Below are positions 252 to 43,764 of a stretch of 64,000 nt of DNA, piece by piece. Position numbers and translations under genes: made by a program. Location of the stretch: assembly GCA_014687725.1 (NCBI GenBank), contig GCA_014687725.1_4094.1. One strand, given 5' to 3'. The notes beneath the pieces are model-generated. The model did not search any database, had not been told where the DNA came from, and saw only the letters and a program-made list of their open reading frames with translations. Position 1 is the stretch's first letter. Each line of letters begins with the position of its first letter. This DNA comes from a phage.

Positions 252-623
252 ATGAATATAGATTTGAAAGGTGCAACCCGAACTGTTATCCTCATTGGGG
301 AATATGCTATCAAGATTCCAACCTTTAAAAGTTGGAAGCTATTCTTAACAGGGATGATAGCTAACCTCAATGAACGTTCGTGGATGCAGTACTCCAATCG
401 TAGTGATAGTAGTATCTGCCCTACGTTGTGGTCATCATGTACTGGACTAGTAACTGTACAGAAACGTTGTAAGCCAGTACAACATAGGGGTTTATTTTGG
501 GTGGAGTTGTGTGCTTTAGCATTGAATTCAGAGTTAAGTACTGACTTCTTCTATTCAGATGCGAAGCCAGAAAACTTTGGGTATCTGGGTGGTAAGTTAG
601 TTAAACTTGATTATGGAGATTAA
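252..623 (+). CDS. mini protein-kinase-like protein (123 aa)
   Basis: Motifs GEYAIKIP and SDAKPENFGY...LVKLDYGD resemble kinase VAIK, catalytic-loop and DFG elements; same family as 43180-43764. Confidence 0.45.
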   Translation: MNIDLKGATRTVILIGEYAIKIPTFKSWKLFLTGMIANLNERSWMQYSNRSDSSICPTLWSSCTGLVTVQKRCKPVQHRGLFWVELCALALNSELSTDFFYSDAKPENFGYLGGKLVKLDYGD

Positions 624-624
624 T

Positions 625-894
625 ATGTACGCACTGTATAATAAAGAAAAGAAACGATTTGCTAAGGTTGAAATTTCGATTGATACATTTGATATGTTGG
701 AGTACTGTATTGTAACGGACCTATATGCTAACTTGTATTACGTTCTTGATGACGTATCAGTACTGCAACGATTGCTTGAGAATTCCAAAAGTCAATGCCA
801 AGGCATCCATGATGGTTCATCTTATGAAACACCTGAGTGTTCCTACGGCTATCTGGACGGGTATGAGATTGTGAAGTTGGGGATCATTGAATAA
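625..894 (+). CDS. hypothetical protein
   Basis: Track ORF 607-894 begins at TTG; ATG at 625 has GGAG 6 nt upstream. Confidence 0.45.
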   Translation: MYALYNKEKKRFAKVEISIDTFDMLEYCIVTDLYANLYYVLDDVSVLQRLLENSKSQCQGIHDGSSYETPECSYGYLDGYEIVKLGIIE

Positions 895-900
895 AGAAAA

Positions 901-933
901 GGGTTGACTTCGGTCAGCCCTTTTTGCTATAAT
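901..933 (+). promoter_or_regulatory. bifunctional intrinsic terminator / sigma70-like promoter element
   Basis: GGGTTGAC-TTCG-GTCAGCCC hairpin (UUCG loop) + TTTTT; embedded -35 TTGACT, 18-nt spacer, -10 TATAAT; repeated at 2183, 3904, ~36811, ~40502, ~43778, ~46036. Confidence 0.6.
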
Positions 934-961
934 TATTTCATCAAGACGAGAGGATGAATAC

Positions 962-1477
962 ATGACACGCATTAACTTAGTACACGTTAAAGAACTTGCT
1001 GACCAACATCTGATGGCTGAATATCGTGAACTCCCACGTGTATTTGGTGCTGTACAAAAACACGTTCAAGCACGTAAGCGTGTACGTGATTTCAAAATTA
1101 ACAGTACTTATCTGTTAGGTTCAGGTCATGTGACATTCTTTTACGACAAGTTGCTGTACTTACAGAAGCGTCATATCGATATTGTTAACGAATGTTTGCG
1201 TCGTGGTATGAAGATTCAAAACACTGAAGTAAACGACATTAGCGGCTTCCCTGCTGAGTTTTGTAATGACTACGTACCAACGGAGTCAGAGATTAAAATG
1301 TCTCGTGATCGTTTGATTGAGAAGCTCCAGATGAAGCCTACGTGGTATAAGTTTACTGATGTTGAATGTCCACAGTACGTTAAAGATATGCAGAACGTAA
1401 GTAGTAAGAACGAATCTAGTACTGATATGTTCGACGAAATTGAAGAACAAATCAAAGATGAAATGAATAATTATTAA
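962..1477 (+). CDS. denV: pyrimidine-dimer DNA glycosylase / endonuclease V
   Basis: N-terminus [45 protein letters not shown] matches T4 endonuclease V from memory; extra acidic C-terminal tail. Confidence 0.88.
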
Positions 1478-1515
1478 AGGAAAGGGTTGACTTCGGTTAC
1501 ACAAAGGAACATAAC

Positions 1516-1710
1516 ATGTTATTAGTATATTCAAAGCGTTTCTGGATTTCTTTTATTGTACTATCGCTAATCGGCTTCGGTTTGAGTATACTCTTTTCGT
1601 GGGATGAATTGGGTACATGGTATTATGAAGTCCCGTGGTACATGAAGATAGCTCCTTGTTATGCGGCATTGTTCGTGTCATTCCTTATTGTTGTCTTCAG
1701 CGAGGATTAG
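1516..1710 (+). CDS. small membrane protein (64 aa)
   Basis: Two hydrophobic segments; ATG start. Confidence 0.45.
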   Translation: MLLVYSKRFWISFIVLSLIGFGLSILFSWDELGTWYYEVPWYMKIAPCYAALFVSFLIVVFSED

Positions 1711-1761
1711 TTGATGTAGTATGTGCTACACCAAAGTATTTGGATATTTTAGATATAAACA

Positions 1762-1790
1762 TTGACACCTGTTCTATCTTTCTGTATTAT
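1762..1790 (+). promoter_or_regulatory. sigma70-like promoter
   Basis: TTGACA, 17-nt spacer, TATTAT about 30 nt upstream of 1817 gene. Confidence 0.45.
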
Positions 1791-1816
1791 GTACATCACC
1801 AAATGAGGAATACAAC

Positions 1817-2176
1817 ATGGCATCTTTAAGTGAAATCGCAGAATACAACCCACTAACAATCTCAACAATTCAACGTACAAAAACTTTTTATTTCCGTCCT
1901 GCTGATGGATGGAAACGTGGAATGAATGGTGACTATCGAGTACTGGAAGATTCACTAATCGAGCGTATCAACTCTGAACTACAGAAGTATGAAGGTGTTA
2001 AAGTTGTGCGTTCAACTTCTCGTTATTTTGAGTACTACATTGAGTCTTCAACTGTAAATGAAAACTCATCATTCTCGGTGGACAACACTGATATTCTTCG
2101 TAATGCTGTTGGTCTTTTATGCAGGATTGCAGAAGAAATTGGATTAACTATCACCACAATGAGTGAGTTAGAATAA
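1817..2176 (+). CDS. hypothetical protein
   Basis: ATG with GAGGA upstream; followed by terminator/promoter element. Confidence 0.55.
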   Translation: MASLSEIAEYNPLTISTIQRTKTFYFRPADGWKRGMNGDYRVLEDSLIERINSELQKYEGVKVVRSTSRYFEYYIESSTVNENSSFSVDNTDILRNAVGLLCRIAEEIGLTITTMSELE

Positions 2177-2182
2177 CATAAA

Positions 2183-2215
2183 GGGTTGACTTCGGTCAGC
2201 CCTTTTTGCTATAAT
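2183..2215 (+). promoter_or_regulatory. terminator/promoter element (copy 2)
   Basis: Same hairpin + T-run + TATAAT as 901-933. Confidence 0.6.
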
Positions 2216-2241
2216 TATTTTATCGAAACGAGAGGTAATAC

Positions 2242-2475
2242 ATGAAACTATCTTTTATACGTTTAGCAGAATTCTTCGGTACTGATATTATTACTTTACA
2301 ACAAATTGCAGACAATACTTCATTAAGTACACAAGAAGTACTTGACTTGGATGTAATTAAGTGCGATAATACTTCCATCGATTACAAAGAAGGTCTTGTC
2401 GAAAAAGATAAGATTCAGGCTAAGATTAATGGTGCTGGACGGGTTCAGTACTGGAAAGGAGTTTTAAGTAAATGA
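2242..2475 (+). CDS. hypothetical protein
   Basis: ATG after GAGAGG; ATGA overlap with next gene. Confidence 0.5.
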   Translation: MKLSFIRLAEFFGTDIITLQQIADNTSLSTQEVLDLDVIKCDNTSIDYKEGLVEKDKIQAKINGAGRVQYWKGVLSK

Positions 2476-3896
2476 AAATTTATATTGATAAATTTGGAAC
2501 GACTTATGAATATTATGATTATACACATTATAATTCATATATACAAAAAAATCATAACCAAATGTCACCTTATTTGCATTATGAAGATTTAATGGAACTA
2601 TTCTCTAAAAATTTAAATTCTATTAAATTTATTGGTTTTAAAGATCCAACATGGAAAAGTTCACATACGCATGTGTATTTTGAATATGATAATATGGTAT
2701 ATGAACATTCAATATCAAATATCAAAACAAAATTCGCTGATCATAGATATAAACCAGGTAGAATATGTAGAACCTTGGAACAAATTATAAATGAGTCCAT
2801 TTATATATTTAAAAAATATGATAAATTTAATTTTCATAGCATTGCATCATTTAATGGAGCACGAACTATAATCAATTATACAATTGAAGGACGTGAAAGA
2901 ATATTTTCTATATCATTCAATTCATTAATAAAAGATTTTAAAGGGGGAAGCCCATGTTATTCATATGAAGAAGTAGAAAATATATCTATAAAAAAATTAA
3001 ATGAACATAATTTGAGATTTATCTCAATTAGTAAATTTAATGGTGTGTTTAGTTGTATTGAATATGAACAACCAACTCAGAAAGGAAAAAAATATGTTGA
3101 TTTTAATATATTAATCTATAATGAATGGAAAGGTAATCTACCGAATATAACTAATGAAGAGGTGAATAATCGAATTTCAGAAAAAATGAAAAAACTAAAT
3201 ATCAATGAATATGAAATTGTAGAATATAACAGTACTAGGAGCATGGTTGAATATACAGTTGATGATATTTCATATACAACTAGTTACGATAAGATTATGC
3301 ATCCAACTTGGAAAGGTAATCCAAGATATACAAAAGAAAGAATAATAAAATTGTCGAAAAAATATTGCAAGGGTAAAAAATTTCAATTTAATAAAATAAT
3401 TGGTAATGTTAAAGGAATTAATACTATCATTGAATTAGAACTTGAAAATGGTATGTTTATATATCCAAAATTTATACAATTAAAAGGAGGTTCTGACTTT
3501 AATACATCCACTGATGGTAAGATTTTAACAGAAATAATTTATCCTTTGTTCGACAATTATATCACACAAAAACGTTTTGAAAATTGTAGAAATCCTGAAA
3601 CTGGATACTTGTTGCCATATGATTTGTATGTTCCAGAATTTAATTTATTATTAGAAAAAGATGGAGTGCAACATTACAATCCAACAGCATATTTTAATAA
3701 AACATATGAATCATATTTGAAATTGAGAGAGAGAGATGAATTTAAAAACAAATATGCCATATCAAATGGTTATAATTTCATGCGAATAGCAGATTATGAA
3801 GATCATGAAAAAATATTGAAATCTTTCCTTAAACTCATTGAAGAGAATCCAGGAAAGCAAATTGTGCAGATCTATGGTGAAGTACAAATTATCTAA
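2472..3896 (+). CDS. AT-rich protein with C-terminal Vsr/DUF559-like (PD-(D/E)xK) nuclease motif
   Basis: C-terminus YDLYVPEFNLLLEKDGVQHY ... NGYNFMRIADYE resembles the DUF559/Vsr endonuclease pattern; markedly lower GC than neighbours. Confidence 0.55.
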   Translation: MKIYIDKFGTTYEYYDYTHYNSYIQKNHNQMSPYLHYEDLMELFSKNLNSIKFIGFKDPTWKSSHTHVYFEYDNMVYEHSISNIKTKFADHRYKPGRICRTLEQIINESIYIFKKYDKFNFHSIASFNGARTIINYTIEGRERIFSISFNSLIKDFKGGSPCYSYEEVENISIKKLNEHNLRFISISKFNGVFSCIEYEQPTQKGKKYVDFNILIYNEWKGNLPNITNEEVNNRISEKMKKLNINEYEIVEYNSTRSMVEYTVDDISYTTSYDKIMHPTWKGNPRYTKERIIKLSKKYCKGKKFQFNKIIGNVKGINTIIELELENGMFIYPKFIQLKGGSDFNTSTDGKILTEIIYPLFDNYITQKRFENCRNPETGYLLPYDLYVPEFNLLLEKDGVQHYNPTAYFNKTYESYLKLRERDEFKNKYAISNGYNFMRIADYEDHEKILKSFLKLIEENPGKQIVQIYGEVQII

Positions 3897-3903
3897 AACA
3901 AAA

Positions 3904-3936
3904 GGGTTGACTTCGGTCGGCCCTTTTTGCTATAAT
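3904..3936 (+). promoter_or_regulatory. terminator/promoter element (copy 3)
   Basis: GGGTTGACTTCGGTCGGCCC + TTTTT + TATAAT. Confidence 0.6.
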
Positions 3937-3964
3937 TATTTCATCAACTGATGAGGATAACGAA

Positions 3965-4735
3965 ATGACCAGAGAAGCACGTAGCATTCAAATCCAGAAA
4001 AACTTCAACTCCATGATGGTTGCTCTTGAGTGTTTGCTCGACGATAGCAGTACTGTAAAAAGTATGGTTGTCAGCGGTGCACCTGGTGTTGGTAAGACTT
4101 ACACCCTGTCACAACGCCTCCAGAAAGCTCATGACGCAGCAGAATGGAACGTAGCCACTATCAGTGGTAAGATGACTACTCTTGCTCTGTATGAAGTTCT
4201 GTACAAGAATCGTCACAGCACTAATGTATTAGTACTTGATGATATGGATAGCATCTTTGAATCAGAAGATGGTATGAACCTACTTAAAGCTGTTTTGGAT
4301 AGTGGTAAGCGTACTGTATCTTATATGACTAGCTCTAAGTACTTGAGCACTAACGGCATTCCTAATAGCTTTGATTTTAATGGTCGCATCGTATTCATTA
4401 CTAACAAAGATTTAGCGTTAGATGCTAAAGCTAAAACTAAAATGTCTGCTCATTATGCTGCTCTTATGTCTCGTTCTGTGTACGTGGATTTACAGATTCA
4501 GACTAAAAGTGATATCATGATTCATATTGAAAATGTAATGACTAAGACTAATATTCTTGCATCTAAAGGTGTTAACAGTAACGGCAGTAAAGCAATTCTG
4601 AACTGGATGTTAAAACATGAAGATAATCTTCGTGCACCATCCCTGCGTATGCCTTTGTTGATTTCAGCAGTATATAACAACAATCCGTATGATTGGGAAG
4701 AACAATGTGAAAACTTGTTCCTTGAGAAAATCTAA
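3965..4735 (+). CDS. P-loop NTPase (AAA-like ATPase)
   Basis: Walker A GAPGVGKT and Walker B VLVLDD. Confidence 0.7.
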   Translation: MTREARSIQIQKNFNSMMVALECLLDDSSTVKSMVVSGAPGVGKTYTLSQRLQKAHDAAEWNVATISGKMTTLALYEVLYKNRHSTNVLVLDDMDSIFESEDGMNLLKAVLDSGKRTVSYMTSSKYLSTNGIPNSFDFNGRIVFITNKDLALDAKAKTKMSAHYAALMSRSVYVDLQIQTKSDIMIHIENVMTKTNILASKGVNSNGSKAILNWMLKHEDNLRAPSLRMPLLISAVYNNNPYDWEEQCENLFLEKI

Positions 4736-4802
4736 TTACATATGTTGACAGTACTACCATCGTGTAGTACTATAACTTAATATTCACCACCGGAGATACG
4801 AT

Positions 4803-5144
4803 ATGCTTGAGTTTTTTAATTCAGATACAATGCTTGGTATCACGCTAATTTACATGTTTGTATTTTTGTGTTATCATTCAATTGTAATTAGTCTGTGGTA
4901 TTTTAAAAGGAAAATTGTTTTTAAATTGTATTCGGATGATAATGTAGTCTTAGTTTTATATAGTATTATCCAAGGTGGGTTTATTTTATTTGGTGTGATG
5001 ACATATGCGATTTACATGTTACAAATTGATAATACACCACACATTACACAATATCTTGTGTTTTCAGGTCTAATCGTGTGGTTGTTGGTGTGTAGCATGT
5101 ACTTTATTATTAAAGCTCGTGATAGAATTAAAGGGGATTTCTAA
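4803..5144 (+). CDS. small multipass membrane protein, tandem family M (1/8)
   Basis: 3-4 hydrophobic helices; WYFKRK motif; close paralog of next gene. Confidence 0.6.
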   Translation: MLEFFNSDTMLGITLIYMFVFLCYHSIVISLWYFKRKIVFKLYSDDNVVLVLYSIIQGGFILFGVMTYAIYMLQIDNTPHITQYLVFSGLIVWLLVCSMYFIIKARDRIKGDF

Positions 5145-5482
5145 TGTTAACATTCTTTAAGTCAGATACAATGCTTAGTATTACTTTGATTTATCTGTTT
5201 GGTTTTTTCTTTTATCATGCACTAGTTGTAGTACTATGGTATTTTAAAAAGAAAATTGTTTTTAAACTGTATCCAGTGAGGAATTCATCACTAGTTCTTT
5301 ACACACTTGTTCAAGGTTTGTTTGCAATTGTTGGTCTTATGGCACACTTAATTTATTGTGCTAATCCTCACTTGAACTCAATCTCACAATATATTGTATT
5401 CTTTGGGTTGTTCATTTGGTTAGTTGTATACTTAATCCATCTCATTATTCATGGTAGAGATAAAATTCGCGGAGACTTCTAA
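5144..5482 (+). CDS. small multipass membrane protein, family M (2/8)
   Basis: Near-identical N-terminus to 4803 gene; TAATG coupling. Confidence 0.6.
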   Translation: MLTFFKSDTMLSITLIYLFGFFFYHALVVVLWYFKKKIVFKLYPVRNSSLVLYTLVQGLFAIVGLMAHLIYCANPHLNSISQYIVFFGLFIWLVVYLIHLIIHGRDKIRGDF

Positions 5483-5829
5483 TGTTTGAAGCTTATCTTG
5501 AGTTTTTAAGGAGTAGTCCAGTTGCACATTCAATTGCAGGGATTATTCTAACAGGTTATGTAACATTTTGGGTAGTTATGTTTCTAGGATGGTATTTTAA
5601 ACGACAATTCTATAAGCGTAATGGTGAAGATTTTATGAATTCTTTCATTAATCAATCGTTGTTTGCATCAACATTGATTGCATGTATTGTGGCTGTTCTA
5701 GCCGGAAAAGCACTACCTGCTTTTTCAGTCGTTTATGGAACAATTGGTATGATATGTGTAGTTTTTCACTTGATCATTAAACTTTGTTGTGTTATGATTG
5801 ACCTTCGAAACAAGATACCGGAGGAATGA
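5482..5829 (+). CDS. small multipass membrane protein, family M (3/8)
   Basis: Hydrophobic, WYFKRQ motif; TAATG overlap. Confidence 0.55.
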   Translation: MFEAYLEFLRSSPVAHSIAGIILTGYVTFWVVMFLGWYFKRQFYKRNGEDFMNSFINQSLFASTLIACIVAVLAGKALPAFSVVYGTIGMICVVFHLIIKLCCVMIDLRNKIPEE

Positions 5830-6164
5830 TGGAATATTTTTTACACTTACTGCCGTGGTATATGAAAGTTAGTACCATGTACTATATTATTAGTGCTGGA
5901 TTCTACTTTCTGATGTGGTTCTTTAAACGACCAATTTCAGTATTCATCGCTGATAACATGCTGCAATTAAAATTACACGCATGGTTTGGTCTGGCGATGA
6001 TTATGCCTATTATTCACTACTCAATGATTAGTAGAGGTTTCCGTTCTAATGGTGAACCAATTGTATTAGTATTCTATTGGGGTTCAACTATTGCATATGT
6101 AAGTTTGTTGTTGTTCCCAGTCGTTCATAAGTTACGTGCTAAAGTTCCTGATGCGAGGTACTAA
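5826..6164 (+). CDS. small multipass membrane protein, family M (4/8)
   Basis: Hydrophobic, WFFKR motif; ATGA overlap. Confidence 0.55.
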   Translation: MMEYFLHLLPWYMKVSTMYYIISAGFYFLMWFFKRPISVFIADNMLQLKLHAWFGLAMIMPIIHYSMISRGFRSNGEPIVLVFYWGSTIAYVSLLLFPVVHKLRAKVPDARY

Positions 6165-6478
6165 TGGATATAGTAACATTGATTTACACGTTGTATTCAT
6201 TCTATTTCATTATGTGTTGGGTTGGATTTTTATTTGTACTCAAGATGTTTGATTATGTTGAAAAACAGATAAAAGAATTTTGTATTCCTTTTATCGGTTC
6301 AACCATTATTAGTGTTTCTTGTGTGTATTTTTTGGTTTTTGATCCACCAGATAACACTGCAATGATTGACTTGATGTTACTACCAACAACTGTTACTTTT
6401 TTATGTAGTCTGATGCCGCCGATTAGCCGTGGACTAACAGAATTTAGACGCAATCAAAAGCGTAAACGAGGGATGTAA
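6164..6478 (+). CDS. small multipass membrane protein, family M (5/8)
   Basis: Hydrophobic; C-terminal basic tail QKRKRG. Confidence 0.5.
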   Translation: MDIVTLIYTLYSFYFIMCWVGFLFVLKMFDYVEKQIKEFCIPFIGSTIISVSCVYFLVFDPPDNTAMIDLMLLPTTVTFLCSLMPPISRGLTEFRRNQKRKRGM

Positions 6479-6846
6479 TGGAAATTGCTCTTATTATCTT
6501 AACTGCTATGTTGTTTATTAGTACTGTGGTTATAATTGGTAAATTCTTTTGTGTATCATTTTTAGAAACGGTATACGATGAAATTGCTGATGATTATGAA
6601 CTACAAGCCGGATTTTTCATTACGTATTGGCTTAGTTTATTTTGTCTAGTCATTGCTTGGATTTTACATATCTTTAAATGGGGTATGGTAGACGGTGATC
6701 CTATTATGGCAATTATTGTTCTAGTGTTTGGTATCCTTGGTGGTGCAGTGCATAATCTAATGGTTATCTGGCAAACTGTTCAATATGTTTTGGTTCCCTA
6801 TTTCGAAAAGATGCACAGTACAATTAAAAAACGTAAACGAGGTTAG
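6478..6846 (+). CDS. small multipass membrane protein, family M (6/8)
   Basis: Hydrophobic; C-terminal KKRKRG like previous. Confidence 0.5.
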   Translation: MEIALIILTAMLFISTVVIIGKFFCVSFLETVYDEIADDYELQAGFFITYWLSLFCLVIAWILHIFKWGMVDGDPIMAIIVLVFGILGGAVHNLMVIWQTVQYVLVPYFEKMHSTIKKRKRG

Positions 6847-6847
6847 T

Positions 6848-7210
6848 ATGAACGGGATAGAATTATCTTTCGTTGGTCAATTACTAGTAATGGCGTATAC
6901 ATTTATCTTCTCACTGAATGCATTCGTGTGCATTGGGAAGTACTTCCATAAGCGACCATTATCAAATATATATGATGTAATCCAAAAGAGATATAGTCCA
7001 GCATATACTGTGTTGGGTACAGTATTCAATTTTGGTTTTATTGTATTAATAATTGGACTGTTCACATCCTCTTTGAATACAATAACCTTCGGTCTTATGA
7101 TATGTTCATTGGTATTAGCCGTAATTATATGTTGTTTAGTACTGCACCTTGTGGTACTATTGTATATAAAGATCTCTGAAATCCACCAACGTTTGGGTAT
7201 GAGGAAATAA
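6848..7210 (+). CDS. small multipass membrane protein, family M (7/8)
   Basis: Start moved from track 6785 to in-frame ATG 6848 right after previous stop. Confidence 0.5.
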   Translation: MNGIELSFVGQLLVMAYTFIFSLNAFVCIGKYFHKRPLSNIYDVIQKRYSPAYTVLGTVFNFGFIVLIIGLFTSSLNTITFGLMICSLVLAVIICCLVLHLVVLLYIKISEIHQRLGMRK

Positions 7211-7211
7211 T

Positions 7212-7583: not shown

Positions 7584-7587
7584 TAAA

Positions 7588-7624: not shown

Positions 7625-8287
7625 ATGATGAAAACAAAATTAGGTTTGTTTTATAAAAATTATTTCGTTAAACAGCGTAAATTTATAAAAAAATATTTCT
7701 CTGGTGAGAAGTCTAGTCCTATAATTTTTAAAAGACCAAGTTATAATACTTACTTAGCTGGTGCTAAACAGTCTAAGAAATTTATTACTCTTTTAAATAA
7801 AAACAAAATTAAAGCTTCTTATGTTGAAACGAGAAGAAACTCATCAATAACTCCTGGTGATTTTATTGAGTACGGATGTTTCAATATTAAGTACAATGAT
7901 AATACATACTTTATGGATATTGATTGTAATACATCCAATCTTTTTAACATTGTAGTAAATCCATTAAAACAATATAATGTTTATGGTGATTCTATTATCA
8001 AATTAATCAAAAACAAAGATAGCTTTGATTTTGAAATAAATGTTTTAGATGATAATTTTGACGAAGTACCAGTAAACCCTGAAATCTGTGATATTTTAAA
8101 CAGTTTAAAAGGTAGTACCTACAATATATCATCTGATTTAATGTTTCAGTACTCATTAATCCATAAAGATATTGAAAAGTATATTGAATGCTCCAAAATT
8201 TTGAATTATCTTTACGATGAATTTAAAAAGAGTTCTAAAATAACTGCATACACTTTGTACAATATTCCTAAAATGGTGAATCTTTGA
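7625..8287 (+). CDS. hypothetical AT-rich protein carrying family-C signature (LMFQYSLIHKD)
   Basis: ATG after AGGAG; motif matches EEYFQxSLVxD family in 54-64 kb. Confidence 0.5.
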   Translation: MMKTKLGLFYKNYFVKQRKFIKKYFSGEKSSPIIFKRPSYNTYLAGAKQSKKFITLLNKNKIKASYVETRRNSSITPGDFIEYGCFNIKYNDNTYFMDIDCNTSNLFNIVVNPLKQYNVYGDSIIKLIKNKDSFDFEINVLDDNFDEVPVNPEICDILNSLKGSTYNISSDLMFQYSLIHKDIEKYIECSKILNYLYDEFKKSSKITAYTLYNIPKMVNL

Positions 8288-9420
8288 CAAATACAGTACT
8301 GGCAACTCCACCGTCTGTAATATATTGTCCAGTACTGTAAATTTGTATACCATCGGTTAAGTAAGTTCTGTATAAAGTTGCTGTAACATATACGTTATTC
8401 ATATTCATCTCTATTGGTAGTACACATTTGGTATAGGCCGACACATCTGTTTGTGTACCTATACCCAATTGACCTGCGTTATCGCCTGTGTTATAACCAG
8501 TTGCGTAAACACCTAATGAAGTTATAATATGATTAGAAAAATATGAATAACCCACACTGCTTCTTATTATATCACCTGGTGCTTGTGTTGTTTGTCTTAA
8601 CGAAATATATGTTTGTGATGTAGAACCATTTGCTAACTGACCAAAGTACTGTCCACCACCATGATATGCAAATAATTTATTAGTACTATTATTACTTGCT
8701 ATAGCAAAAGCGAAGTAACTTGAGTTTGTTGTATAATCTTTCACCGTATAGGTATTAGTTATTTGAGAACATAACGTGTACTTTGAATATAACGTCATGT
8801 CGGTTGTACCTACGCCTGATATTGCACCAGTATAATACAATCTCCCATCGGTTCCAATAAATCCTTGCATAAGAAAATTTGCCAGTATTTTGGATGGTGT
8901 TACTCCAGTAGGTACTGTTCCTTGTACAAATGATGAAAGTGAATCGGTACTTCTACCATTTCCCAGTTGTCCATAACTACCATAACCAGTATTCCATATC
9001 GTGTTGTCTGTACATAATACGCTTAATGCACCTGCACTAACTGCAATTTGTTTTATTGTTTTTCCTAGGGCTGTTATTCTATCAAACACTATCTTTGCAG
9101 AAGCCCACGTAGTAGACTTATCAGTTGATAAACCCAATGATGCACCATTCCCAGCGTACCACATCGTATTATCTTTCTTTTTTATTAAAGTTGACTCATA
9201 CCCGCACCCATATATCTTCTACGTTTGTATTGCATAAAACCCATTGGGTCTGTGTTATAATATTACCTATACCCATTTGCCCAAACTCTTGAGAGCCTCT
9301 ACTGTATAGTGTCCCGTCTGACATAAGGGCAAAAACTGTCGTATCAGATGAAGATATTTTGGTAACAGTAGGGGGTAGGTTCTTTTTTGATGATGTGATA
9401 ATTCTTCCAAAGGGTAGCAT
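8268..9420 (-). pseudogene. frameshifted MLPFGR-family RCC1-like propeller paralog (1/13)
   Basis: N-terminal ORF 9196-9432 (MLPFGRI...DIWVRV*) and C-terminal ORF 8268-9164 join by a 1-nt shift in a GGG run near ~9204-9210 to give DIW-CGYESTLIKKKDNTMWYAG, matching gene 2. Confidence 0.5.
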
Positions 9421-36800: not shown

Positions 36801-36810
36801 AAAAAAAAGT

Positions 36811-36840: not shown

Positions 36841-37024
36841 TGTATTCATTGAGAGATAGCTCACTAGCCCACAGGGTGCATAAGTGTATCTATTGTATAA
36901 TGATTGAGTACTGAAAACTATTTTAAAGTATTTGATAAAAAGTACTTGCATACTATCTCAATAGGCGTATAATGTTTTACATCGCAAGGGGAAACGGTTT
37001 CCCCTGGTAATAAGGAAACGAATC

Positions 37025-37366
37025 ATGACTATTGCAATTGCTCAATCTAACTTTGAAAACGAAATCATCGCTCAGGCACTGCGTTTAAATGATGGTCGGG
37101 CCGAAATCAATTACGGTTTCAATAGTGGTGGATGTGAAAAATATCAGTACTTTATAACTGCTGATGGCGGTGTCCTGGGCATCAATACCGTTATTGTAAA
37201 CATTCAGAAAATTAATTTCAATGATCCAGACGATAGCCAGTTTTACATCACGGGCGTAGACGTGAACTATGAGGATGACTCACTAACTGATGATCACACT
37301 GGTGAGAAGTTAGAAAGTGCATACGGTGAAGATGATTATCAGTCCGGTCCAGAAGATTTCGAATAA
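37025..37366 (+). CDS. hypothetical acidic protein
   Basis: Promoter + leader hairpin + AAGGAAACGAATCATG. Confidence 0.55.
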   Translation: MTIAIAQSNFENEIIAQALRLNDGRAEINYGFNSGGCEKYQYFITADGGVLGINTVIVNIQKINFNDPDDSQFYITGVDVNYEDDSLTDDHTGEKLESAYGEDDYQSGPEDFE

Positions 37367-37458
37367 TATTAAAAAATAGTTTGACAATAGTTTTTAGTAC
37401 TGTATAATAGTTTACATGAAGGGGAGAAATGATTCTCCCCACTAAGAGGAAAAACAAA

Positions 37459-37671
37459 ATGGCTAATATCCGCACTGTACTGAAAAATGCAAAACAAGTT
37501 TTATTTTCTGATCATGAAAATTTCAACAAGGATATCACAGGTGTTCGGAATATCAAAGATGTAAAAAGTGTTATGGGTATCTATTGCAATATGAAACGTG
37601 TTGGCACGTTCGGCGATAAAGTACTATACCAGGCAGGGGATTACAATTTTACACTGACTATCATTAACTAA
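37459..37671 (+). CDS. hypothetical early protein
   Basis: Start moved to MANIRTV after AAGAGGA. Confidence 0.55.
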   Translation: MANIRTVLKNAKQVLFSDHENFNKDITGVRNIKDVKSVMGIYCNMKRVGTFGDKVLYQAGDYNFTLTIIN

Positions 37672-37762
37672 AAATATTATCACAGTACTATTGACAACGT
37701 TTGATAGTACTGGCATAATAACTTTTATCAAGACAACGCATATTAATTTAAGGAATACTAAA

Positions 37763-37942
37763 ATGGCTATTATCGCAAAAACTGAAATCATCGGCCTGGA
37801 TTCTATCATCATGACGTTTGAAGATCAAAAAGGGATGTATGTAGTTTCCTATGGTGATTATGTTCGGGAGTATGAAACGGTAGACGAAGCCTTTGAAAGT
37901 TACATTCGCCAGGTGAATAAAGCATACGACGACTACCGCTAA
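37763..37942 (+). CDS. hypothetical early protein, paralog of 34599-34811
   Basis: Start moved to MAIIAKT; type-2 promoter upstream. Confidence 0.5.
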   Translation: MAIIAKTEIIGLDSIIMTFEDQKGMYVVSYGDYVREYETVDEAFESYIRQVNKAYDDYR

Positions 37943-38041
37943 AATATATTACCAGTACTATTAAATCTATTGACAATGATTGATAGTACAGTATAATAAG
38001 TTTTATAAACAGTAGTTAACTTAACCTAAGAGAGAAACAAA

Positions 38042-38185
38042 ATGATCGCACTGGATTCATTCATCGACGCAGTACTGGCAAAAACTGGCGAGGATCTGAC
38101 CGCAGAACAATACGCGATGATCGAGCAATGCCAGCAAAACGGTAAATCGGTGAAAGATACTGTTAAGATTATCCGCAAGATGTAA
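38042..38185 (+). CDS. small protein (47 aa)
   Basis: Below track cutoff; type-2 promoter, AAGAGAGAAA SD, terminator downstream. Confidence 0.4.
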   Translation: MIALDSFIDAVLAKTGEDLTAEQYAMIEQCQQNGKSVKDTVKIIRKM

Positions 38186-38191
38186 GAATAT

Positions 38192-38220
38192 AGCCCACTG
38201 GTTAACGCTGGTGGGCTTTA
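38192..38220 (+). terminator. intrinsic terminator containing a Chi octamer
   Basis: AGCCCAC-tggttaacgct-GGTGGGCT + TTT; GCTGGTGG at ~38207-38214. Confidence 0.45.
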
Positions 38221-38290
38221 ATCATTTACCCTATACAATGCCAGTACTAAACCGTTTAACTCGTTAGAATGCATTACAGGACGTTTAACA

Positions 38291-38488
38291 ATGATTAGCA
38301 TGAAATCAGTACAAAAACAAATTGATACATTATCAAAAATTAAACGTAAACAATACTCATTAGAATATACAATCAATGGTAACTATCATCTAATGAAAGA
38401 GAATAATTTCATAGTCATTGATGAATCATTGCAAGTTATTAGTATAGTACTGAAAGCATTAATCAATGACAGAAAAAAGTTAAAATAA
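38291..38488 (+). CDS. hypothetical AT-rich small protein
   Basis: Track ORF; weak start context. Confidence 0.35.
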   Translation: MISMKSVQKQIDTLSKIKRKQYSLEYTINGNYHLMKENNFIVIDESLQVISIVLKALINDRKKLK

Positions 38489-38589
38489 TCTATTGACAAA
38501 TTATGCCAGTACTGGCATAATACTTACATCAAGACGAGAACGTCACTAACCCATAGGGTGCACAAATGTAGCTGTCTAATATTGATCAA

Positions 38590-38640
38590 AAAATGATCTG
38601 ATCAATACTTGATCAATTTGCGTAAAGTAGTATAATTCTA
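38590..38640. repeat. cluster of TGATCA/GATC motifs
   Basis: tgatcaaaaaatgatctgatcaatacttgatcaa in a ~240-bp gene-free stretch. Confidence 0.4.
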
Positions 38641-38819
38641 TGCAGTTGGTTAGACGAAAGGTTATGATTAGTAGTGGAAGTGTATAAAAATTTTCATGGT
38701 GTGGTGATCCGCACATATGGGGATGAATATGTCGTGTCGTATGGATTGGAAAAAGTAAGAACAAGTAATATACTTGTCGCGTTACAGTACTATAGTATTT
38801 TTATAATGAGGTTAAAATA

Positions 38820-39077
38820 ATGGCTGTAGGATTCACGAAAGATGGGGCCGAGCAAGACGAGATTAACGCAGTGATTCAGGCCGCTGTTAACCACGCTAGA
38901 ACGCAAATTAACGCACAAATAGAATCACTGATACATTGCCTCGACTGCGGCGATATAATCCCTGAGAAACGACGCCAGGCCGTTAAGGGATGTAAGTACT
39001 GCATAACTTGCCAGGAGGATCATGATAGTACTTTTAAACGTCCCCCGCGTAATTGTTGGCATAGATCTATGAGATAA
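38820..39077 (+). CDS. TraR/DksA-family C4 zinc-finger protein
   Basis: CLDCGDIIPEKRRQAVKGCKYCITCQ: CxxC-17-CxxC spacing typical of TraR/DksA. Confidence 0.7.
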   Translation: MAVGFTKDGAEQDEINAVIQAAVNHARTQINAQIESLIHCLDCGDIIPEKRRQAVKGCKYCITCQEDHDSTFKRPPRNCWHRSMR

Positions 39078-39140
39078 AAAGTATTGACAGTACTGAAAGA
39101 TAGTGTATAATATTTTATATCTTAACTGAGGATTGAAATC

Positions 39141-39497
39141 ATGGGAATACAACATATCACGCGTACTACTGACAATGGCGAGATCACTGGCTATCAAGTA
39201 CAGGGCAAAGTAGCACAATTGCAGTACTGGTTTGTTAAACGTGGAATCATTGCACCGGATCTTGATTATGACCGTGTAGCGTTTATTGATTCTCTTTATG
39301 TTGATCCTGATAGTCGGGGCAATGGTGAAGGTAACGAATTAATGAATGCCTTTATTGATGCCGCCGATGATTCAGATTGTATCATTTTAGAATGCGATAC
39401 GGGAGAAGATAACGCCTTTAATCTTAAAGAATGGTACGAAGGTTTCGGATTCGAGGTACTGATCGATAGTGAATATCCTATCATGATTTTATCATAG
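39141..39497 (+). CDS. GNAT-like N-acetyltransferase (small)
   Basis: VAFIDSLYVDPDSRGNGEGNELMNAF ... NAFNLKEWYEGFGF resembles GNAT motifs A/B. Confidence 0.5.
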   Translation: MGIQHITRTTDNGEITGYQVQGKVAQLQYWFVKRGIIAPDLDYDRVAFIDSLYVDPDSRGNGEGNELMNAFIDAADDSDCIILECDTGEDNAFNLKEWYEGFGFEVLIDSEYPIMILS

Positions 39498-39575
39498 TAC
39501 TTGCATTTAGTTTTCAGTACTGTTATAGTACTTACATCAAGGGGAAACATCTTCCCCTACTAAGAGGAAATAAAA

Positions 39576-39764
39576 ATGGAAAACTTATCAAGTATTTTAG
39601 TACAAGATGATTTCGGTAATCCTGGAAGTGCTATCATTGTTCGGGGTAATAAAGCAACATTTGTTATTGCTGGTGGACCTGTACAGCGTAGCATTAAAAA
39701 TAATGCTGTTACCATTAATAATGTACGCTATCGCTTAGATAAAGAATTGATTCATAAACTTTAA
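39576..39764 (+). CDS. hypothetical early protein
   Basis: Promoter + hairpin + AAGAGGAAATAAAAATG. Confidence 0.5.
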   Translation: MENLSSILVQDDFGNPGSAIIVRGNKATFVIAGGPVQRSIKNNAVTINNVRYRLDKELIHKL

Positions 39765-39848
39765 AAAGTATTTGACAATAGATTATAGTACTGTATAATA
39801 AGTTACATGAAGGGGTGAAATGATTCTCCCCACTAAGAGGAAAGAAAA

Positions 39849-40061
39849 ATGCAAGGTCAACTAATCGTTCGTAAATGGTCTGATACTAACGAAAAACCGT
39901 GGGATGTACAATACATCGGACCGGATGGGGTATCACGTTATCAGCCTGGCGTAACGCATAGTACTGAGCAATTCGCAAACGCTCACCGCGAACGCCTGTT
40001 AGAATCCATGAAACAGGGATTCTGTGAAAAATTCATTCAAGATCATTGGCTGAAAGATTAA
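39849..40061 (+). CDS. hypothetical early protein
   Basis: Promoter + hairpin + SD. Confidence 0.55.
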   Translation: MQGQLIVRKWSDTNEKPWDVQYIGPDGVSRYQPGVTHSTEQFANAHRERLLESMKQGFCEKFIQDHWLKD

Positions 40062-40078
40062 TATAAGGAGTACAGCTT

Positions 40079-40171
40079 ATGCAAATGAATCCGATGATTA
40101 TTGTTTTAGCTGTACTTATGATCATTCATGCAATAGTAGAAGTATTAACGCAATCAGGAGTAATAAAATGA
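40079..40171 (+). CDS. very small hydrophobic peptide (30 aa)
   Basis: AAGGAG 8 nt upstream; ATGA-coupled to next ORF; speculative. Confidence 0.3.
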   Translation: MQMNPMIIVLAVLMIIHAIVEVLTQSGVIK

Positions 40172-40341
40172 TTCAAGTAGAATTATCAGTACTGAAAGAT
40201 CTGTTTTATCGGTTAGGTACTACTGGCGAGTATCCTAAAAGTGATACCGCAAAACTTTTTGTATCACTCGACTTATGGCAACGCGAACAATTAGTAATGT
40301 CCTGGCGTAAAGGTAAAGCAGATAGCGAGGTGAAAGCATGA
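40168..40341 (+). CDS. small protein (57 aa)
   Basis: Below track cutoff; ATGA coupling both sides. Confidence 0.4.
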   Translation: MIQVELSVLKDLFYRLGTTGEYPKSDTAKLFVSLDLWQREQLVMSWRKGKADSEVKA

Positions 40342-40487
40342 AAGAATTCTTATTCGAAGTAGTGTTTCAAGGTGTCGGTAGTAACCAACTGATTCGCTCA
40401 AGTGGTTACAATGTTAACCAGGCATGGAATAACATTAAACAAATGTACCCGAACGCTATCACCTATCGCAACCCGAAACAAGTTTAA
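40338..40487 (+). CDS. small protein (49 aa)
   Basis: Below track cutoff; followed by terminator/promoter hairpin. Confidence 0.4.
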   Translation: MKEFLFEVVFQGVGSNQLIRSSGYNVNQAWNNIKQMYPNAITYRNPKQV

Positions 40488-40501
40488 AAATAATTGAAAA
40501 A

Positions 40502-40534
40502 GGGATTGACTCCGGTCAGTCCCTTTGCTATTAT
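40502..40534 (+). promoter_or_regulatory. terminator/promoter element (copy 5)
   Basis: GGGATTGAC-TCCG-GTCAGTCCC, TTTG, TTGACT/17 nt/TATTAT. Confidence 0.55.
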
Positions 40535-40635
40535 ATACGCATAGAAACAAATCAGCCCACAGGGTGCATAAATGTATCTATTGTTTGCTGGTGGCTAGTA
40601 CTATCAAGTACTGAAAACTATTTTTAAAAAAGTAC

Positions 40636-40663
40636 TTGCATTGTACTTAGAATCAAGTATAAT
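40636..40663 (+). promoter_or_regulatory. early promoter P1 of tandem pair
   Basis: TTGCAT, 16 nt, TATAAT; upstream A/T-rich tract and TCAGTACTGA. Confidence 0.5.
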
Positions 40664-40751
40664 GTTTTACATCAGGACGGGGAACGAAACAAGTAACCCC
40701 GTTAAGTAGTCCAGGAGTAAGACATAAGAAAACCTCCCCTGATAAAATAGT

Positions 40752-40779
40752 TTGACAATAGAAAGTAAACGAGTATAAT
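40752..40779 (+). promoter_or_regulatory. early promoter P2 of tandem pair
   Basis: TTGACA, 16 nt, TATAAT; separated from P1 by a ~60-nt structured leader, duplicated at 30360-30560. Confidence 0.5.
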
Positions 40780-40812
40780 ACTTACATCAACCACTGATAA
40801 GGAAACATTAAA

Positions 40813-41088
40813 ATGCGGATTCTACTGACAGCTAACGAAATCGAACAAGTACTGACTACTAACCTGGAAGACTGGAAACGTGAAGCAGATATCCAGGCGG
40901 TTCAACGGCTTAACGATGAGTTAACGCCGGATGACTTAAGCAAGATTGTAGATCCTCAATTCTACGAAGATATCCACGACACCGCGTTAAGCGTCGAGGA
41001 TGTACTAGATAAGCACTACATTGATATTGATTTGCAGGTTTACGGTCGTAAAAACTTTATCACTATTCACGACATTTACAATAATTAA
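40813..41088 (+). CDS. hypothetical acidic protein
   Basis: ATG after AAGGAAACATTAAA. Confidence 0.55.
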   Translation: MRILLTANEIEQVLTTNLEDWKREADIQAVQRLNDELTPDDLSKIVDPQFYEDIHDTALSVEDVLDKHYIDIDLQVYGRKNFITIHDIYNN

Positions 41089-41174
41089 GTATTGACAAAG
41101 TATCTTAGTACTGTATAATAGTTTACATCGAGAGGGGGAATGGTTCCCCTCCTAACAAAGAGAGAGAAATAAAA

Positions 41175-41357
41175 ATGGCTAAATGCACTATCTGTAAGAA
41201 AGAAATCGTATTAGTTCCAAGTGCCCGTGAACGTGCCGCTCGGTTCGGTGGCAAACCGTCAGACTATACAAAAATGTTTACTGTCCATGCAGCTTGCCAG
41301 GTAGCAAAACGTTCACAAGAAAGCGTAGAATTAATGCGTAAACTTTCCAAAAAATAA
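41175..41357 (+). CDS. hypothetical small protein
   Basis: Promoter + hairpin + GAGAGAGAAATAAAAATG. Confidence 0.5.
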   Translation: MAKCTICKKEIVLVPSARERAARFGGKPSDYTKMFTVHAACQVAKRSQESVELMRKLSKK

Positions 41358-41445
41358 GTATTGACAAAGTATCTTAGTACTGTATAATAGTTTACATCAA
41401 GTGAGGGGAAACGGTTCCCCTCCTAACAAAGAGAGAGAAATAAAA

Positions 41446-41769
41446 ATGGCTATGATCCTTGCCCAGAAAGTAGAACTGAAAATTGTAACCTCCTTTGACA
41501 TTAAAGTTAATCGGTGGACTGATTCACACGGCAATACTTACCACTCTTGCTACGTGTCTGCGTTAATTGGTGATCGTTGGGAAGACCTGGGACATGAAAC
41601 CTTTACATACGGTTACGGCACACAAGGCGAATACACGGGCTTGGAGATCATTAAAGAAACCGTTATAGGTTTCAACCCGAAAGAAACAGTTATTCACCGC
41701 ATCGAGGAAGAGATCAACAAAGAAATAACAGTTCGATACTACGATGTAAAACGTAAGAAAGATATGTAA
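41446..41769 (+). CDS. hypothetical protein, paralog of 34893-35237
   Basis: Start moved to MAMILAQ; duplicated promoter/leader with 41175 gene. Confidence 0.55.
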   Translation: MAMILAQKVELKIVTSFDIKVNRWTDSHGNTYHSCYVSALIGDRWEDLGHETFTYGYGTQGEYTGLEIIKETVIGFNPKETVIHRIEEEINKEITVRYYDVKRKKDM

Positions 41770-41864
41770 TAGAATCCATTTAAAGTACTATTTGACATTG
41801 CCCAGATAGTACTTTATAATAGACTCTAACTTGTAGTACTAACTCAACTAATAGGATGTATACC

Positions 41865-42260
41865 ATGATTACTAAATTCTACGCTACCCGTGAAGCTGCC
41901 CGTATTGTTGCACGCGAGGAAGGAGCAGCATTTAAAGACATGGGCAAAGATGCACCGAAAGGCCAACGCTGGGCCGTACAGTTCAAAGAGATCTCTGATA
42001 TTGTGAATTCACCTGAGCCAGTACTAACAGCAGCAGAACTAAAACGAGCGGATTTACTGGCGTCAATACTTGATGCACAAGATGAGTTTATCGCTGATTC
42101 TGATATCAAAGTACAGACAAACCATACCGCTTGGACTCACGCGGATCACCTGGCAAACCTGAAGCGTCCAAGTGAACTGGTACGCAACCAGAAAGAGATC
42201 CGACACGACCGTAAGGGTAATCGTGTAACAGTATACAGTAAACGCCGCCAGGTTATCTAA
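41865..42260 (+). CDS. hypothetical protein, paralog of 29549-29815
   Basis: Start moved to second ATG (AGGA upstream). Confidence 0.55.
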   Translation: MITKFYATREAARIVAREEGAAFKDMGKDAPKGQRWAVQFKEISDIVNSPEPVLTAAELKRADLLASILDAQDEFIADSDIKVQTNHTAWTHADHLANLKRPSELVRNQKEIRHDRKGNRVTVYSKRRQVI

Positions 42261-42282
42261 TAACTTGCAGTACTAACAACAC

Positions 42283-42307
42283 GGCGGGATCAGTTCCCGC
42301 CTTTTTT
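42283..42307 (+). terminator. intrinsic terminator
   Basis: GGCGGGA-tcagt-TCCCGCC + TTTTTT. Confidence 0.65.
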
Positions 42308-42321
42308 ATAGGACAAACAAA

Positions 42322-42576
42322 ATGATTAAGGTTCAACTATATAAAGATAATATCTTGCGGGTACACTATAAAGCCCCTCAGAGAATCATCACAAAGGCCG
42401 TACAGCTTGCTAATGAGTTTATTAATGGTAACCTATTACCAAGGAAGTTAAGCAACGGAAAACTGCGTGTAATCGATGTAGACACTAACAACAGAATAGT
42501 AATTGAGAACACAGGAAAGATAAACCTATATGAACACCAACAATATAATAAGAAAATAAAACTAATATCACGTTGA
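42322..42576 (+). CDS. hypothetical protein
   Basis: ATG after GGACAAACAAA. Confidence 0.5.
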   Translation: MIKVQLYKDNILRVHYKAPQRIITKAVQLANEFINGNLLPRKLSNGKLRVIDVDTNNRIVIENTGKINLYEHQQYNKKIKLISR

Positions 42577-42629
42577 CAGTACTCAATTGTTTTAGTACTA
42601 TGTACATATACCAACACGGGAGAAACAAA

Positions 42630-42848
42630 ATGAAATTATCTAAAATCGAAAAGAAAACTATTGATGAAGCAGTTAAGCACGGTTATACCTTTCGTAATGA
42701 TTCACATTTTACCAATTTTCAACAAGGGTATCGTACTATTAAAAAACTCATTGACAAAGGTTTATTAGTTGAAGTCAATAACGGCAATGGTATTGAGTAT
42801 CAACCAACACAAGACGCATTTTATTTTAAGAAATATAATATTATCTAA
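42630..42848 (+). CDS. hypothetical protein, tandem duplicate pair member
   Basis: Promoter TTGACA/17/TACTAT and leader duplicated at 42849-42905. Confidence 0.5.
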   Translation: MKLSKIEKKTIDEAVKHGYTFRNDSHFTNFQQGYRTIKKLIDKGLLVEVNNGNGIEYQPTQDAFYFKKYNII

Positions 42849-42905
42849 TTGACAGTACTCAAATGTTTTAGTACTATATGTACATACCAACACGGGGAAA
42901 ACAAA

Positions 42906-43148
42906 ATGATTACTTTAGAAAAACGTATCAAAGAAACTACATCGCTGGTGGAACTGTTAACAGTACTGAAATGCCGTACTACTCGGTTTAGTACACCGGA
43001 CTTTATTAATATGGTTGATGTTAACGGTCGTTATCGCATTGCAGTAGAACAAGGAACAGCGAAAGTATTCAGTACTAAAAACACTAAGGAAGTGATTCAT
43101 GCTGTAAGTGTTAAAAAAGTAGTTGCCATTGATAGTAAAGTACTGTAA
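42906..43148 (+). CDS. hypothetical protein, tandem duplicate pair member
   Basis: Same promoter/leader as previous gene. Confidence 0.5.
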   Translation: MITLEKRIKETTSLVELLTVLKCRTTRFSTPDFINMVDVNGRYRIAVEQGTAKVFSTKNTKEVIHAVSVKKVVAIDSKVL

Positions 43149-43179
43149 GATAGTTTCATTAACTCAAGGAGAACATGCA

Positions 43180-43764
43180 ATGCGTAATTATACTAAATTC
43201 ATCCGTACCCTGTCAGAAATGGAAACCAACAAAGAGATCCTTTCAGCTTGTCGGTTAGCTGGTCTGGAGATCATCGGTGCGGGTTCTTCCCGTATTGTAT
43301 TCGCTTTAAATGATCGGTTAGTGATCAAGGTCGCGAATTGTGATGCGGGTGTAGAACAAAATGAAACTGAATGTAAGGTATGGAATTTTTTAGATTATGA
43401 CCGCCCTCAATTGAAACAGTACTTTGCAAAGGTGCATATGCATTTATGCGATCCTGATAATATGTTTATCGTTATGGATCGGTTGAGTACTGCAAGTAAA
43501 GGCAGTGTAAAGCACGTAAACGCGTGCAATGAATTAAAGTACAATATTAAACGTAATGCCATTGAACGCCAGCACCGCTTTGCTGATGCACTACAACACG
43601 TTGATGATACATTATCAACACTAACGATAAGAGATATCAGAAAACAGAATATCGGCCAGGATCGTAATGGCCTTATTAAAGTACTTGATTACGGTTTAAC
43701 CCGCAATATCTGGAATCAGTACTATAAAAAGCGTGATGTAGAAGCAAGTAAGGTAACACGATAA
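43180..43764 (+). CDS. protein-kinase-like protein (atypical Ser/Thr kinase fold)
   Basis: IIGAGSSRIVF (Gly-rich loop), LVIKV (beta3 Lys), RDIRKQNIG (catalytic loop), KVLDYG (DFG-like); AAGGAG SD. Confidence 0.55.
   Translation: MRNYTKFIRTLSEMETNKEILSACRLAGLEIIGAGSSRIVFALNDRLVIKVANCDAGVEQNETECKVWNFLDYDRPQLKQYFAKVHMHLCDPDNMFIVMDRLSTASKGSVKHVNACNELKYNIKRNAIERQHRFADALQHVDDTLSTLTIRDIRKQNIGQDRNGLIKVLDYGLTRNIWNQYYKKRDVEASKVTR

Follow-up and report, generated by a model that had tools for sequence, protein, structure and literature searches.

The 64,000-nt stretch of phage DNA analysed here (contig GCA_014687725.1_4094.1 of NCBI GenBank assembly GCA_014687725.1; hereafter the window) shares >95% identity with the Asteriusvirus jumbo coliphages 121Q, G17, Sharanji and BAU.Micro_ELP-22. 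It contains two open reading frames (ORFs), ORF A and ORF B, that an earlier note on this DNA had described as encoding two divergent protein-kinase-like proteins, and the kinase motifs of both are found at the following positions.

252-623, + strand: ORF A, mini kinase-like protein of 123 aa (121Q gp215, Sharanji gp134)
270-287, + strand: degenerate Gly-rich loop of ORF A, G7-A-T9-R10-T-V12 (within KGATRTV, residues 6-12)
312-314, + strand: beta3 lysine of ORF A, K21 (AIK)
372-374, + strand: alphaC glutamate of ORF A, E41
558-575, + strand: catalytic loop of ORF A, D103-A-K105-P-E-N108 (SDAKPEN), with the Ser/Thr-kinase pattern D-x-K-P-E-N
609-623, + strand: end of ORF A, with DYG (D120-G122; LDYG motif) at 609-617, then D123 and the stop codon TAA at 621-623
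43180-43764, + strand: ORF B, minimal kinase-like protein of 194 aa (Sharanji gp063, WNN14351.1; 121Q gp308; fEgEco12 g044)
43276-43299, + strand: Gly-rich loop of ORF B, G33-A-G35-S-S-R38-I-V40 (IGAGSSRIV)
43327-43329, + strand: beta3 lysine of ORF B, K50 (VIK), invariant
43369-43371, + strand: alphaC glutamate of ORF B, E64, invariant
43633-43650, + strand: catalytic loop of ORF B, D152-I-R-K-Q-N157 (RDIRKQN)
43687-43695, + strand: DYG of ORF B (D170-G172; LDYG), with just 22 residues remaining after it

Both ORFs keep Hanks subdomains I-VII, comprising the ATP-binding beta-sheet, the beta3-Lys/alphaC-Glu pair, alphaE, a D-x-K/x-x-x-N loop and a Mg-binding DYG, and subdomains VIII-XI (activation segment/APE, P+1 loop and alphaF-alphaI) are absent from both. 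They resemble the Hanks-type Ser/Thr kinases (PF00069) in possessing a Gly loop, a VAIK-type Lys, an alphaC Glu, a D-x-K-P-E-N loop (in ORF A) and a DFG-type Asp in canonical order and spacing, but differ from them in the missing subdomains and in falling below the Pfam gathering score, and ORF A also lacks the first Gly of GxGxxG. The earlier note had taken the pair for two copies of one protein, one of them truncated. With subdomains VIII-XI absent from the two proteins alike, ORF A is not simply ORF B cut short, and the contrast between a full-length and a truncated form does not hold because ORF B also stops 22 residues past its DYG. The two proteins are only ~18% identical and each belongs to its own sub-family of conserved length; we refer to the sub-family of ORF A, which is labelled hypothetical in the Asteriusvirus records inspected, as the mini family.

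Relationship, conservation and predicted fold

ORF A and ORF B both match PHROG 4301, a family of "unknown function", the former over profile positions 40-167 of 225 (E 8e-44) and the latter over positions 13-184 (E 1e-41). BLASTP of one ORF against the other aligned only the stretch from the catalytic loop to the DYG. At the profile level the two sub-families align with each other in hhalign (E 5.5e-5), and a 52-sequence mini profile searched against the window ORFs matched ORF B (E 2.6e-4). The columns that are invariant in both sub-families are the G, R and V of the Gly loop, the beta3 Lys, the alphaC Glu, the catalytic Asp, the +5 Asn and D-x-G. Judged from these alignments, the resemblance is far above chance, and the columns that do not vary coincide exactly with the catalytic positions of kinases. 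Searching all 587 six-frame ORFs of the window with hidden Markov models (HMMs) of the family returned ORF A and ORF B only.

Against the PDB, the profile of the ORF B family gives alignments to MKK4, MKK7, MKK6, NDR, RSK and BTK that run from the Gly loop to the DFG motif, with E values of 1.5e-4 to 1e-3 for MKK4/MKK7. In Pfam, ORF B has sub-threshold matches only to Pkinase (PF00069; 17.8 bits vs a gathering score of 31.7), and neither ORF A nor any of 51 relatives matched PF00069. The kinase match in sensitive profile searches on which the earlier note had staked its proposal was thus obtained for the ORF B family (MKK4/MKK7, best E 1.5e-4) and failed to appear for the mini family at the sequence level (PDB, Pfam). 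Scanning GTDB genomes with the pattern D-x-K-P-E-N-[FY]-G-Y gave no confirmed match. The sequence comparisons are best explained by a single phage-specific clade (PHROG 4301) of minimal protein-kinase-like proteins, within which ORF A and ORF B diverged long ago.

Residue conservation was counted over 183 short and 17 long family representatives. The beta3 Lys (K21 of ORF A) and the alphaC Glu (E41) are each present in 182 of the 183 short members and in all 17 long ones, and the DFG Asp in 179/183 and 17/17, respectively. Among the short members, the Gly loop retains its G in 179/183, its R in 180/183 and its V in 175/183, the catalytic position is occupied by Asp or Glu in 178/183 (Asp 129, Glu 49), and the +2 Lys of the catalytic loop (K105 in ORF A) is found in 155/183. 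E41 of ORF A is also part of a family-specific motif, G34-x3-N38-x2-E41.

An exhaustive profile search with the mini family recovered 2,073 cluster representatives at E<=1e-3. At the stricter cut-off of E<=1e-10 there were 733, these being 50% identity clusters and a lower bound on the size of the family. Nearly all members are 110-150 residues long, and their end point is strikingly uniform: among 194 single-domain members with a locatable DxG, the protein ends at the Gly in 21 cases, one residue further on in 115 and within three residues in 149. The motif reads DYG in 114 of the 131 short members ending there, and the final residue is mostly Ser, Asn or Asp. Length and end point are kept down to ~30% identity across hundreds of clusters. 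This conservation and the fixed end point are incompatible with a decaying fragment, and the pattern across the family indicates that the mini truncation is maintained under selection.

AlphaFold2 (AF2) models built with the family alignments have a mean predicted local distance difference test (pLDDT) of 93.6 and a predicted template modelling score (pTM) of 0.82 for ORF A, and 88.6 and 0.84 for ORF B. The ORF A model consists of beta1-3 (residues 2-23), alphaC (28-43), beta4-5 (58-71), alphaE (79-92), the catalytic loop, beta7-8 (109-118) and the DYG, and nothing more; in that of ORF B, this core is extended by two helices at the N-terminus (4-26) and one at the C-terminus (175-189) and contains a two-helix insert (109-145). 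Both models have the protein-kinase-like (PKL) fold, with a five-stranded N-lobe sheet plus alphaC, alphaE, the catalytic loop, beta7-8 and the DFG turn, and both ORFs carry its catalytic residues, namely the beta3 Lys, the alphaC Glu, the catalytic Asp with its +5 Asn and the Mg-binding DFG Asp, which are near-invariant in the 200 representatives. Foldseek matched the ORF A model with TTK, WbdD, Lpg2603 and RIOK2 (probability 0.99-1.0, TM(query) 0.5-0.63), all of the PDB matches listed being kinases, and the ORF B model with Lpg2603, APH(2''), NEK7, MEK1 and NleH2. SAICAR synthetase, which has a related ATP-binding fold, is also among the structural neighbours; we group the family with kinases nonetheless because of its D-x-K-x-x-N and DFG-type motifs.

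The structural neighbours bear on the nature of the substrate, as an open site without a C-terminal lobe could act on a small molecule, a nucleotide immune signal or RNA rather than on protein, in the manner of aminoglycoside phosphotransferases (APHs) or the archaeal tRNA kinase ArkI. APH(2'') proteins are among the top structural neighbours of both models and SAICAR synthetase occurs among them, but the scores of both are no better than those of protein kinases. The +2 Lys is conserved in the mini family, whereas the APH and choline-kinase families generally have an H-x-D-x4-N loop without this residue, and none of the contexts examined showed linkage to genes for nucleotide signals or antibiotics. 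We consider a non-protein substrate rather unlikely.

Distribution and genomic context

The mini gene was found in 118 phage records, 23 of them from Pseudomonas phages and 13 from Aeromonas phages. Its carriers comprise Asteriusvirus and other jumbo phages (Erwinia Y3, Klebsiella Miami, Aeromonas PS1, Ralstonia RP12 and Pseudomonas OBP), rV5-like phages, Gamaleyavirus podophages, Felix-O1-like phages, Pseudomonas siphophages and Salmonella lambdoid prophages. Only ~10 Tequatrovirus-like (T4-like) records have it, among them Bas45 of the BASEL collection. Between Tequatrovirus, rV5-like and Gamaleyavirus phages, the mini genes share 74-79% identity (Bas45, L006:2501-2881; phi G17, L007:2501-2863; Escherichia phage A5-4), and such identity across unrelated coliphage families therefore points to recent horizontal transfer. 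In Salmonella enterica lambdoid prophages (L008 and L009, both at 8001-8372), the gene occupies an accessory slot between Rz/Phage_lysis and the terminase small subunit Nu1. ORF B-type proteins were found in 60 records, all of RaK2-like jumbo phages and none from Pseudomonas or Aeromonas. Because these distributions differ, the mini and ORF B genes occur independently, and the suggestion made in the earlier note that the mini-protein modulates the longer one receives no support.

A few records already name mini homologues as kinases ([quoted passage not shown] or "serine/threonine kinase"). ORF B-type proteins are named "protein kinase" in K64-1, fENko-Kae01, fEgEco12 and Turkey3, and the ORF B orthologue of Sharanji has been referred to as "another protein kinase ... 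function unknown" (PMC11895373). A "virion structural protein" label attached to a Shewanella mini homologue was set aside, as it belongs to the neighbouring gene. Our literature search on the mini family, or on a "smallest" or "minimal" kinase in phages, found no description of the mini family.

The mini gene typically lies in arrays of small genes of unknown function. In the window, the GGAG within the terminal codons of ORF A also serves as a ribosome-binding site for the gene that follows (ATG at 625). The genes directly 3' of the mini gene in the window, Bas45 and phi G17 fall into PHROGs 8563, 2023 and 16338, which are unrelated and do not align with one another, and at the sequence level we reject the idea of a split gene whose C-lobe is supplied in trans by the next gene. 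ORF A is short, stops abruptly past its DYG and occurs in the same genome as ORF B; it might be what is left of a longer kinase gene that decayed or was split, or it might act on ORF B as a dominant-negative regulator. However, its length and end point are conserved across hundreds of clusters, its catalytic residues are strongly conserved, the unrelated downstream PHROGs leave neither a split gene nor a conserved trans partner, and many phages with the mini gene lack ORF B. This explanation is close to refuted.

Larger proteins containing related domains were also encountered. In P0205 (390 aa), residues 32-141 form a mini-kinase domain that is joined to a head-morphogenesis domain (Phage_min_cap2, PF06152), which hints that some mini members may be packaged in virions; P0205 is a singleton cluster and may be a gene-calling artefact. 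The metagenomic proteins P0083 (923 aa), P0121 (969), P0162 (782), P0173 (638) and P0206 (800) consist of three to four tandem ORF B-type modules and have no Pfam match. Every module has a separate Gly loop, Lys, Glu, catalytic loop and LDYG. One such protein (L015:5656-8565) is encoded on a phage-like 16.8-kb contig beside dUTPase and Toprim genes; scans of IMG/VR and JGI metagenomes revealed nothing of the origin of the tandem-module proteins.

ORF B lies within a direct terminal repeat of ~21 kb that has been mapped in vB_Ec-M-J (1-21525). The corresponding repeat of fEgEco12, which restriction digests confirmed, is 20,993 bp long and has the ORF B orthologue g044 at 16161-16745. The equivalent part of the window is ~26500-48000, with boundaries estimated from one anchor. 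Because they are inside the direct terminal repeat, ORF B and the other repeat genes are present twice per packaged genome. The region around ORF B contains three perfect sigma-70 consensus promoters, and the signals nearest to the gene are as follows.

42849-42877, + strand: sigma-70-like candidate promoter from a consensus match, TTGACA-17-TACTAT with the recurrent TTGACAGTACT box
43166-43171, + strand: ribosome-binding site of ORF B, AAGGAG, with an 8-nt spacer to the ATG
43776-43803, + strand: candidate terminator hairpin directly 3' of ORF B, with a 12-bp stem and a weak T tract

The promoter at 42849 appears to head a two-gene unit (42906-43148 and ORF B) ending at the hairpin at 43776. 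Its TTGACAGTACT box, a -35-like element with a conserved AGTACT extension, occurs 28 times in the window with at most one mismatch vs 1.65 expected (e.g. at 4745, 39084, 42573, 42849, 45675, 45734 and 54677), mostly on the + strand and ahead of small ORFs, and may be the mark of a phage early-promoter class. ORF B would then be expressed early by the host polymerase. The apparent ORFs starting from 42573 and 42849, which have near-identical N-termini, are promoter repeats read as protein.

Downstream of ORF A, the window encodes an endonuclease V (a denV-type pyrimidine-dimer glycosylase; 962-1477) followed by a 474-aa ORF (2472-3896). The region spanned by these two genes is annotated as a homing or HNH endonuclease in relatives and differs among Asteriusvirus genomes. 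A 252-nt gene located between gp213 and gp215 of 121Q is absent from the window.

A third kinase-like gene lies outside the window, ~3 kb upstream of position 1, and encodes Sharanji gp144, a T7 gp0.7-type protein of 224 aa.

OR545507.1 66182-66856 (L005:3183-3857), minus strand: Sharanji gp144 (phrog_15752, E 1e-97)

This protein has D-x-H-x-x-N and ITDP motifs and ends ~20 residues past its DFG-equivalent; it is the T7-kinase homologue that has been reported from Sharanji (WNN14432.1; PMC11895373). Comparison of the ORF A/ORF B family with gp144 by hhalign was not significant (E 0.15), and by this measure gp144 shares nothing detectable with ORF A and ORF B other than the fold. In terms of sequence, Asteriusviruses carry three unrelated minimal putative kinases.

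Comparison with known minimal kinases and proposed activity

Kinases that end soon after the DFG position are known from phage T7 and from bacterial pathogens. The kinase domain of T7 gp0.7 (T7K) comprises residues 1-242, with a DPV at 213-215 as the DFG-equivalent and ~27 residues after it; T7K is a hyperactive, promiscuous kinase that disarms defences (PMC13645617). Like ORF A and ORF B, the T7K domain stops soon after its DFG-type motif, and T7K is a phage kinase that is made early. The two ORFs differ from it in having DYG rather than DPV and in lacking a shut-off or DNA-binding domain. Membership of the T7 gp0.7 kinase family (PHROG 2828/15752) was rejected, as neither ORF matches those PHROGs and both have DYG instead of DPV/DP, a replacement of DFG that is a T7K trait (PMC13645617). 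The KKP kinases of Pf prophages were likewise rejected as relatives, since they have canonical Pkinase domains and are unrelated.

OspG of Shigella and NleH are active kinases without subdomains VIII-XI, OspG being activated by bound E2~Ub (PMC12756638). The core of OspG and of E. coli NleH1/2 corresponds to subdomains I-VII without an activation loop or alphaF-alphaI lobe, as in both ORFs; these effectors are ~160-200 residues long, close to ORF B in size, and OspG and NleH2 are among the structural neighbours. They differ in being bacterial type III effectors that act in eukaryotic cells. OspG and NleH also keep C-terminal helices past the DFG-type motif, where ORF A has a single residue. 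We found no kinship to OspG/NleH beyond the generic kinase fold in either sequence or structure, and the completion of OspG by E2~Ub serves here as a model for how a lobe-less kinase could be completed. RIO and Bud32 are larger (220-290 residues), retain a helical C-lobe, have catalytic-loop motifs that differ from those of the mini family and show no sequence-level match to ORF A or ORF B.

The residues conserved in both ORFs are those for Mg-ATP binding and phosphotransfer, and the missing parts are those for regulation (activation segment) and peptide docking (P+1 loop, alphaF and alphaG). Within the mini family, the D-A-K-P-E-N loop favours a Ser/Thr protein-kinase ancestry. On the strength of sequence, models and analogy, we propose, with a probability of about 0.55, that the two proteins phosphorylate host proteins constitutively from early in infection, and that they either act promiscuously or are completed by the proteins they target. 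ATP binding, catalysis, substrate class, timing and biological role are all predictions in this proposal. Each protein would bind Mg-ATP in the canonical cleft, as residue conservation and the models suggest, and would pass the gamma-phosphate to hydroxyl groups of host, and possibly phage, proteins. Activity would be constitutive, because without an activation loop there is nothing to switch off, and, because there is no substrate-docking lobe, substrate choice would be either promiscuous, as in the short T7 kinase domain, or completed and targeted by a bound protein, as OspG is by E2~Ub. Both proteins would be made early, ORF B from the terminal repeat behind sigma-70-type promoters, and may have a role in host takeover or counter-defence, which would fit the patchy, horizontally transferred distribution of the mini gene.

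Alternatively, the proteins may be ATP-binding switches, that is, ATPases or pseudokinase-like scaffolds that act on a host complex, for example the ribosome or RNA polymerase, by clamping, remodelling or blocking it in the manner of RIO, Bud32 and COQ8, without phosphorylating a substrate. The complete absence of a substrate-binding lobe speaks for such a function, and COQ8 kinase-like proteins are reported to be ATPases (PMC13418538). However, the D-x-K-P-E-N loop has the Ser/Thr-kinase Lys in 155/183 short members, canonical protein kinases score as high as or higher than RIO and Bud32 in the structural comparison, and OspG and T7K show that protein phosphorylation is compatible with the loss of subdomains VIII-XI. 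We give a switch or scaffold only a minor chance.

Several points count against constitutive phosphorylation of host proteins by ORF A and ORF B. Small relatives of the same fold, among them RIO, Bud32 and COQ8, function as ATPases and not as protein kinases. In canonical kinases, alphaF is the scaffold for both hydrophobic spines; it is missing here, and a 123-residue fragment alone may be unable to hold the active geometry. About a quarter of the mini members (49/183) have Glu in place of the catalytic Asp (position 103 of ORF A), and a similar number (44/183) have Ser in place of the +5 Asn (position 108); these variants may represent a sub-family with altered chemistry or metal use. Sequence and profile searches of Pfam, NCBIfam, PADLOC and the PDB with the mini family gave no match and no solved kinase, and its assignment to the kinases is based on profile-profile comparison, shared PHROG membership and predicted structure. 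The contexts examined contain no conserved neighbours or informative domain fusions that point to a substrate, and the promoter and terminator calls around ORF B are consensus matches only.

A more far-reaching possibility, which we advance tentatively and consider less probable than the general proposal of early phosphotransferases, is that members of the ORF A family work as protein kinases on their own or once completed by a target, which would make them the smallest catalytic unit of the kinase fold, and that very diverse phages use them as mobile, constitutive, host-directed effectors, with the tandem proteins being effector arrays. ORF B alone would be a modest finding because it has already been called a kinase. 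The mini family is a more extreme form of the known "minimal kinase" theme, with no Pfam model and a PHROG label of "unknown function". It is of interest at a time when the T7 kinase has just been shown to disarm bacterial defences via promiscuous phosphorylation (PMC13645617). The kinases described in a screen of the BASEL collection are T7K homologues and P1 Doc only (PMC13645617), and the mini family appears to have been missed by at least one targeted search, as Bas45 of this collection carries a mini gene.

The size, breadth and conserved end point of the mini family make its putative activity worth experimental work. If proteins of 120 residues are active, the minimum for kinase catalysis would be redefined, with no need for an activation segment, an alphaF scaffold or a substrate lobe, and the family would offer a tiny, engineerable kinase module. 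It would also represent a large, overlooked class of phage kinases extending across jumbo, T4-like, N4-like and temperate phages.

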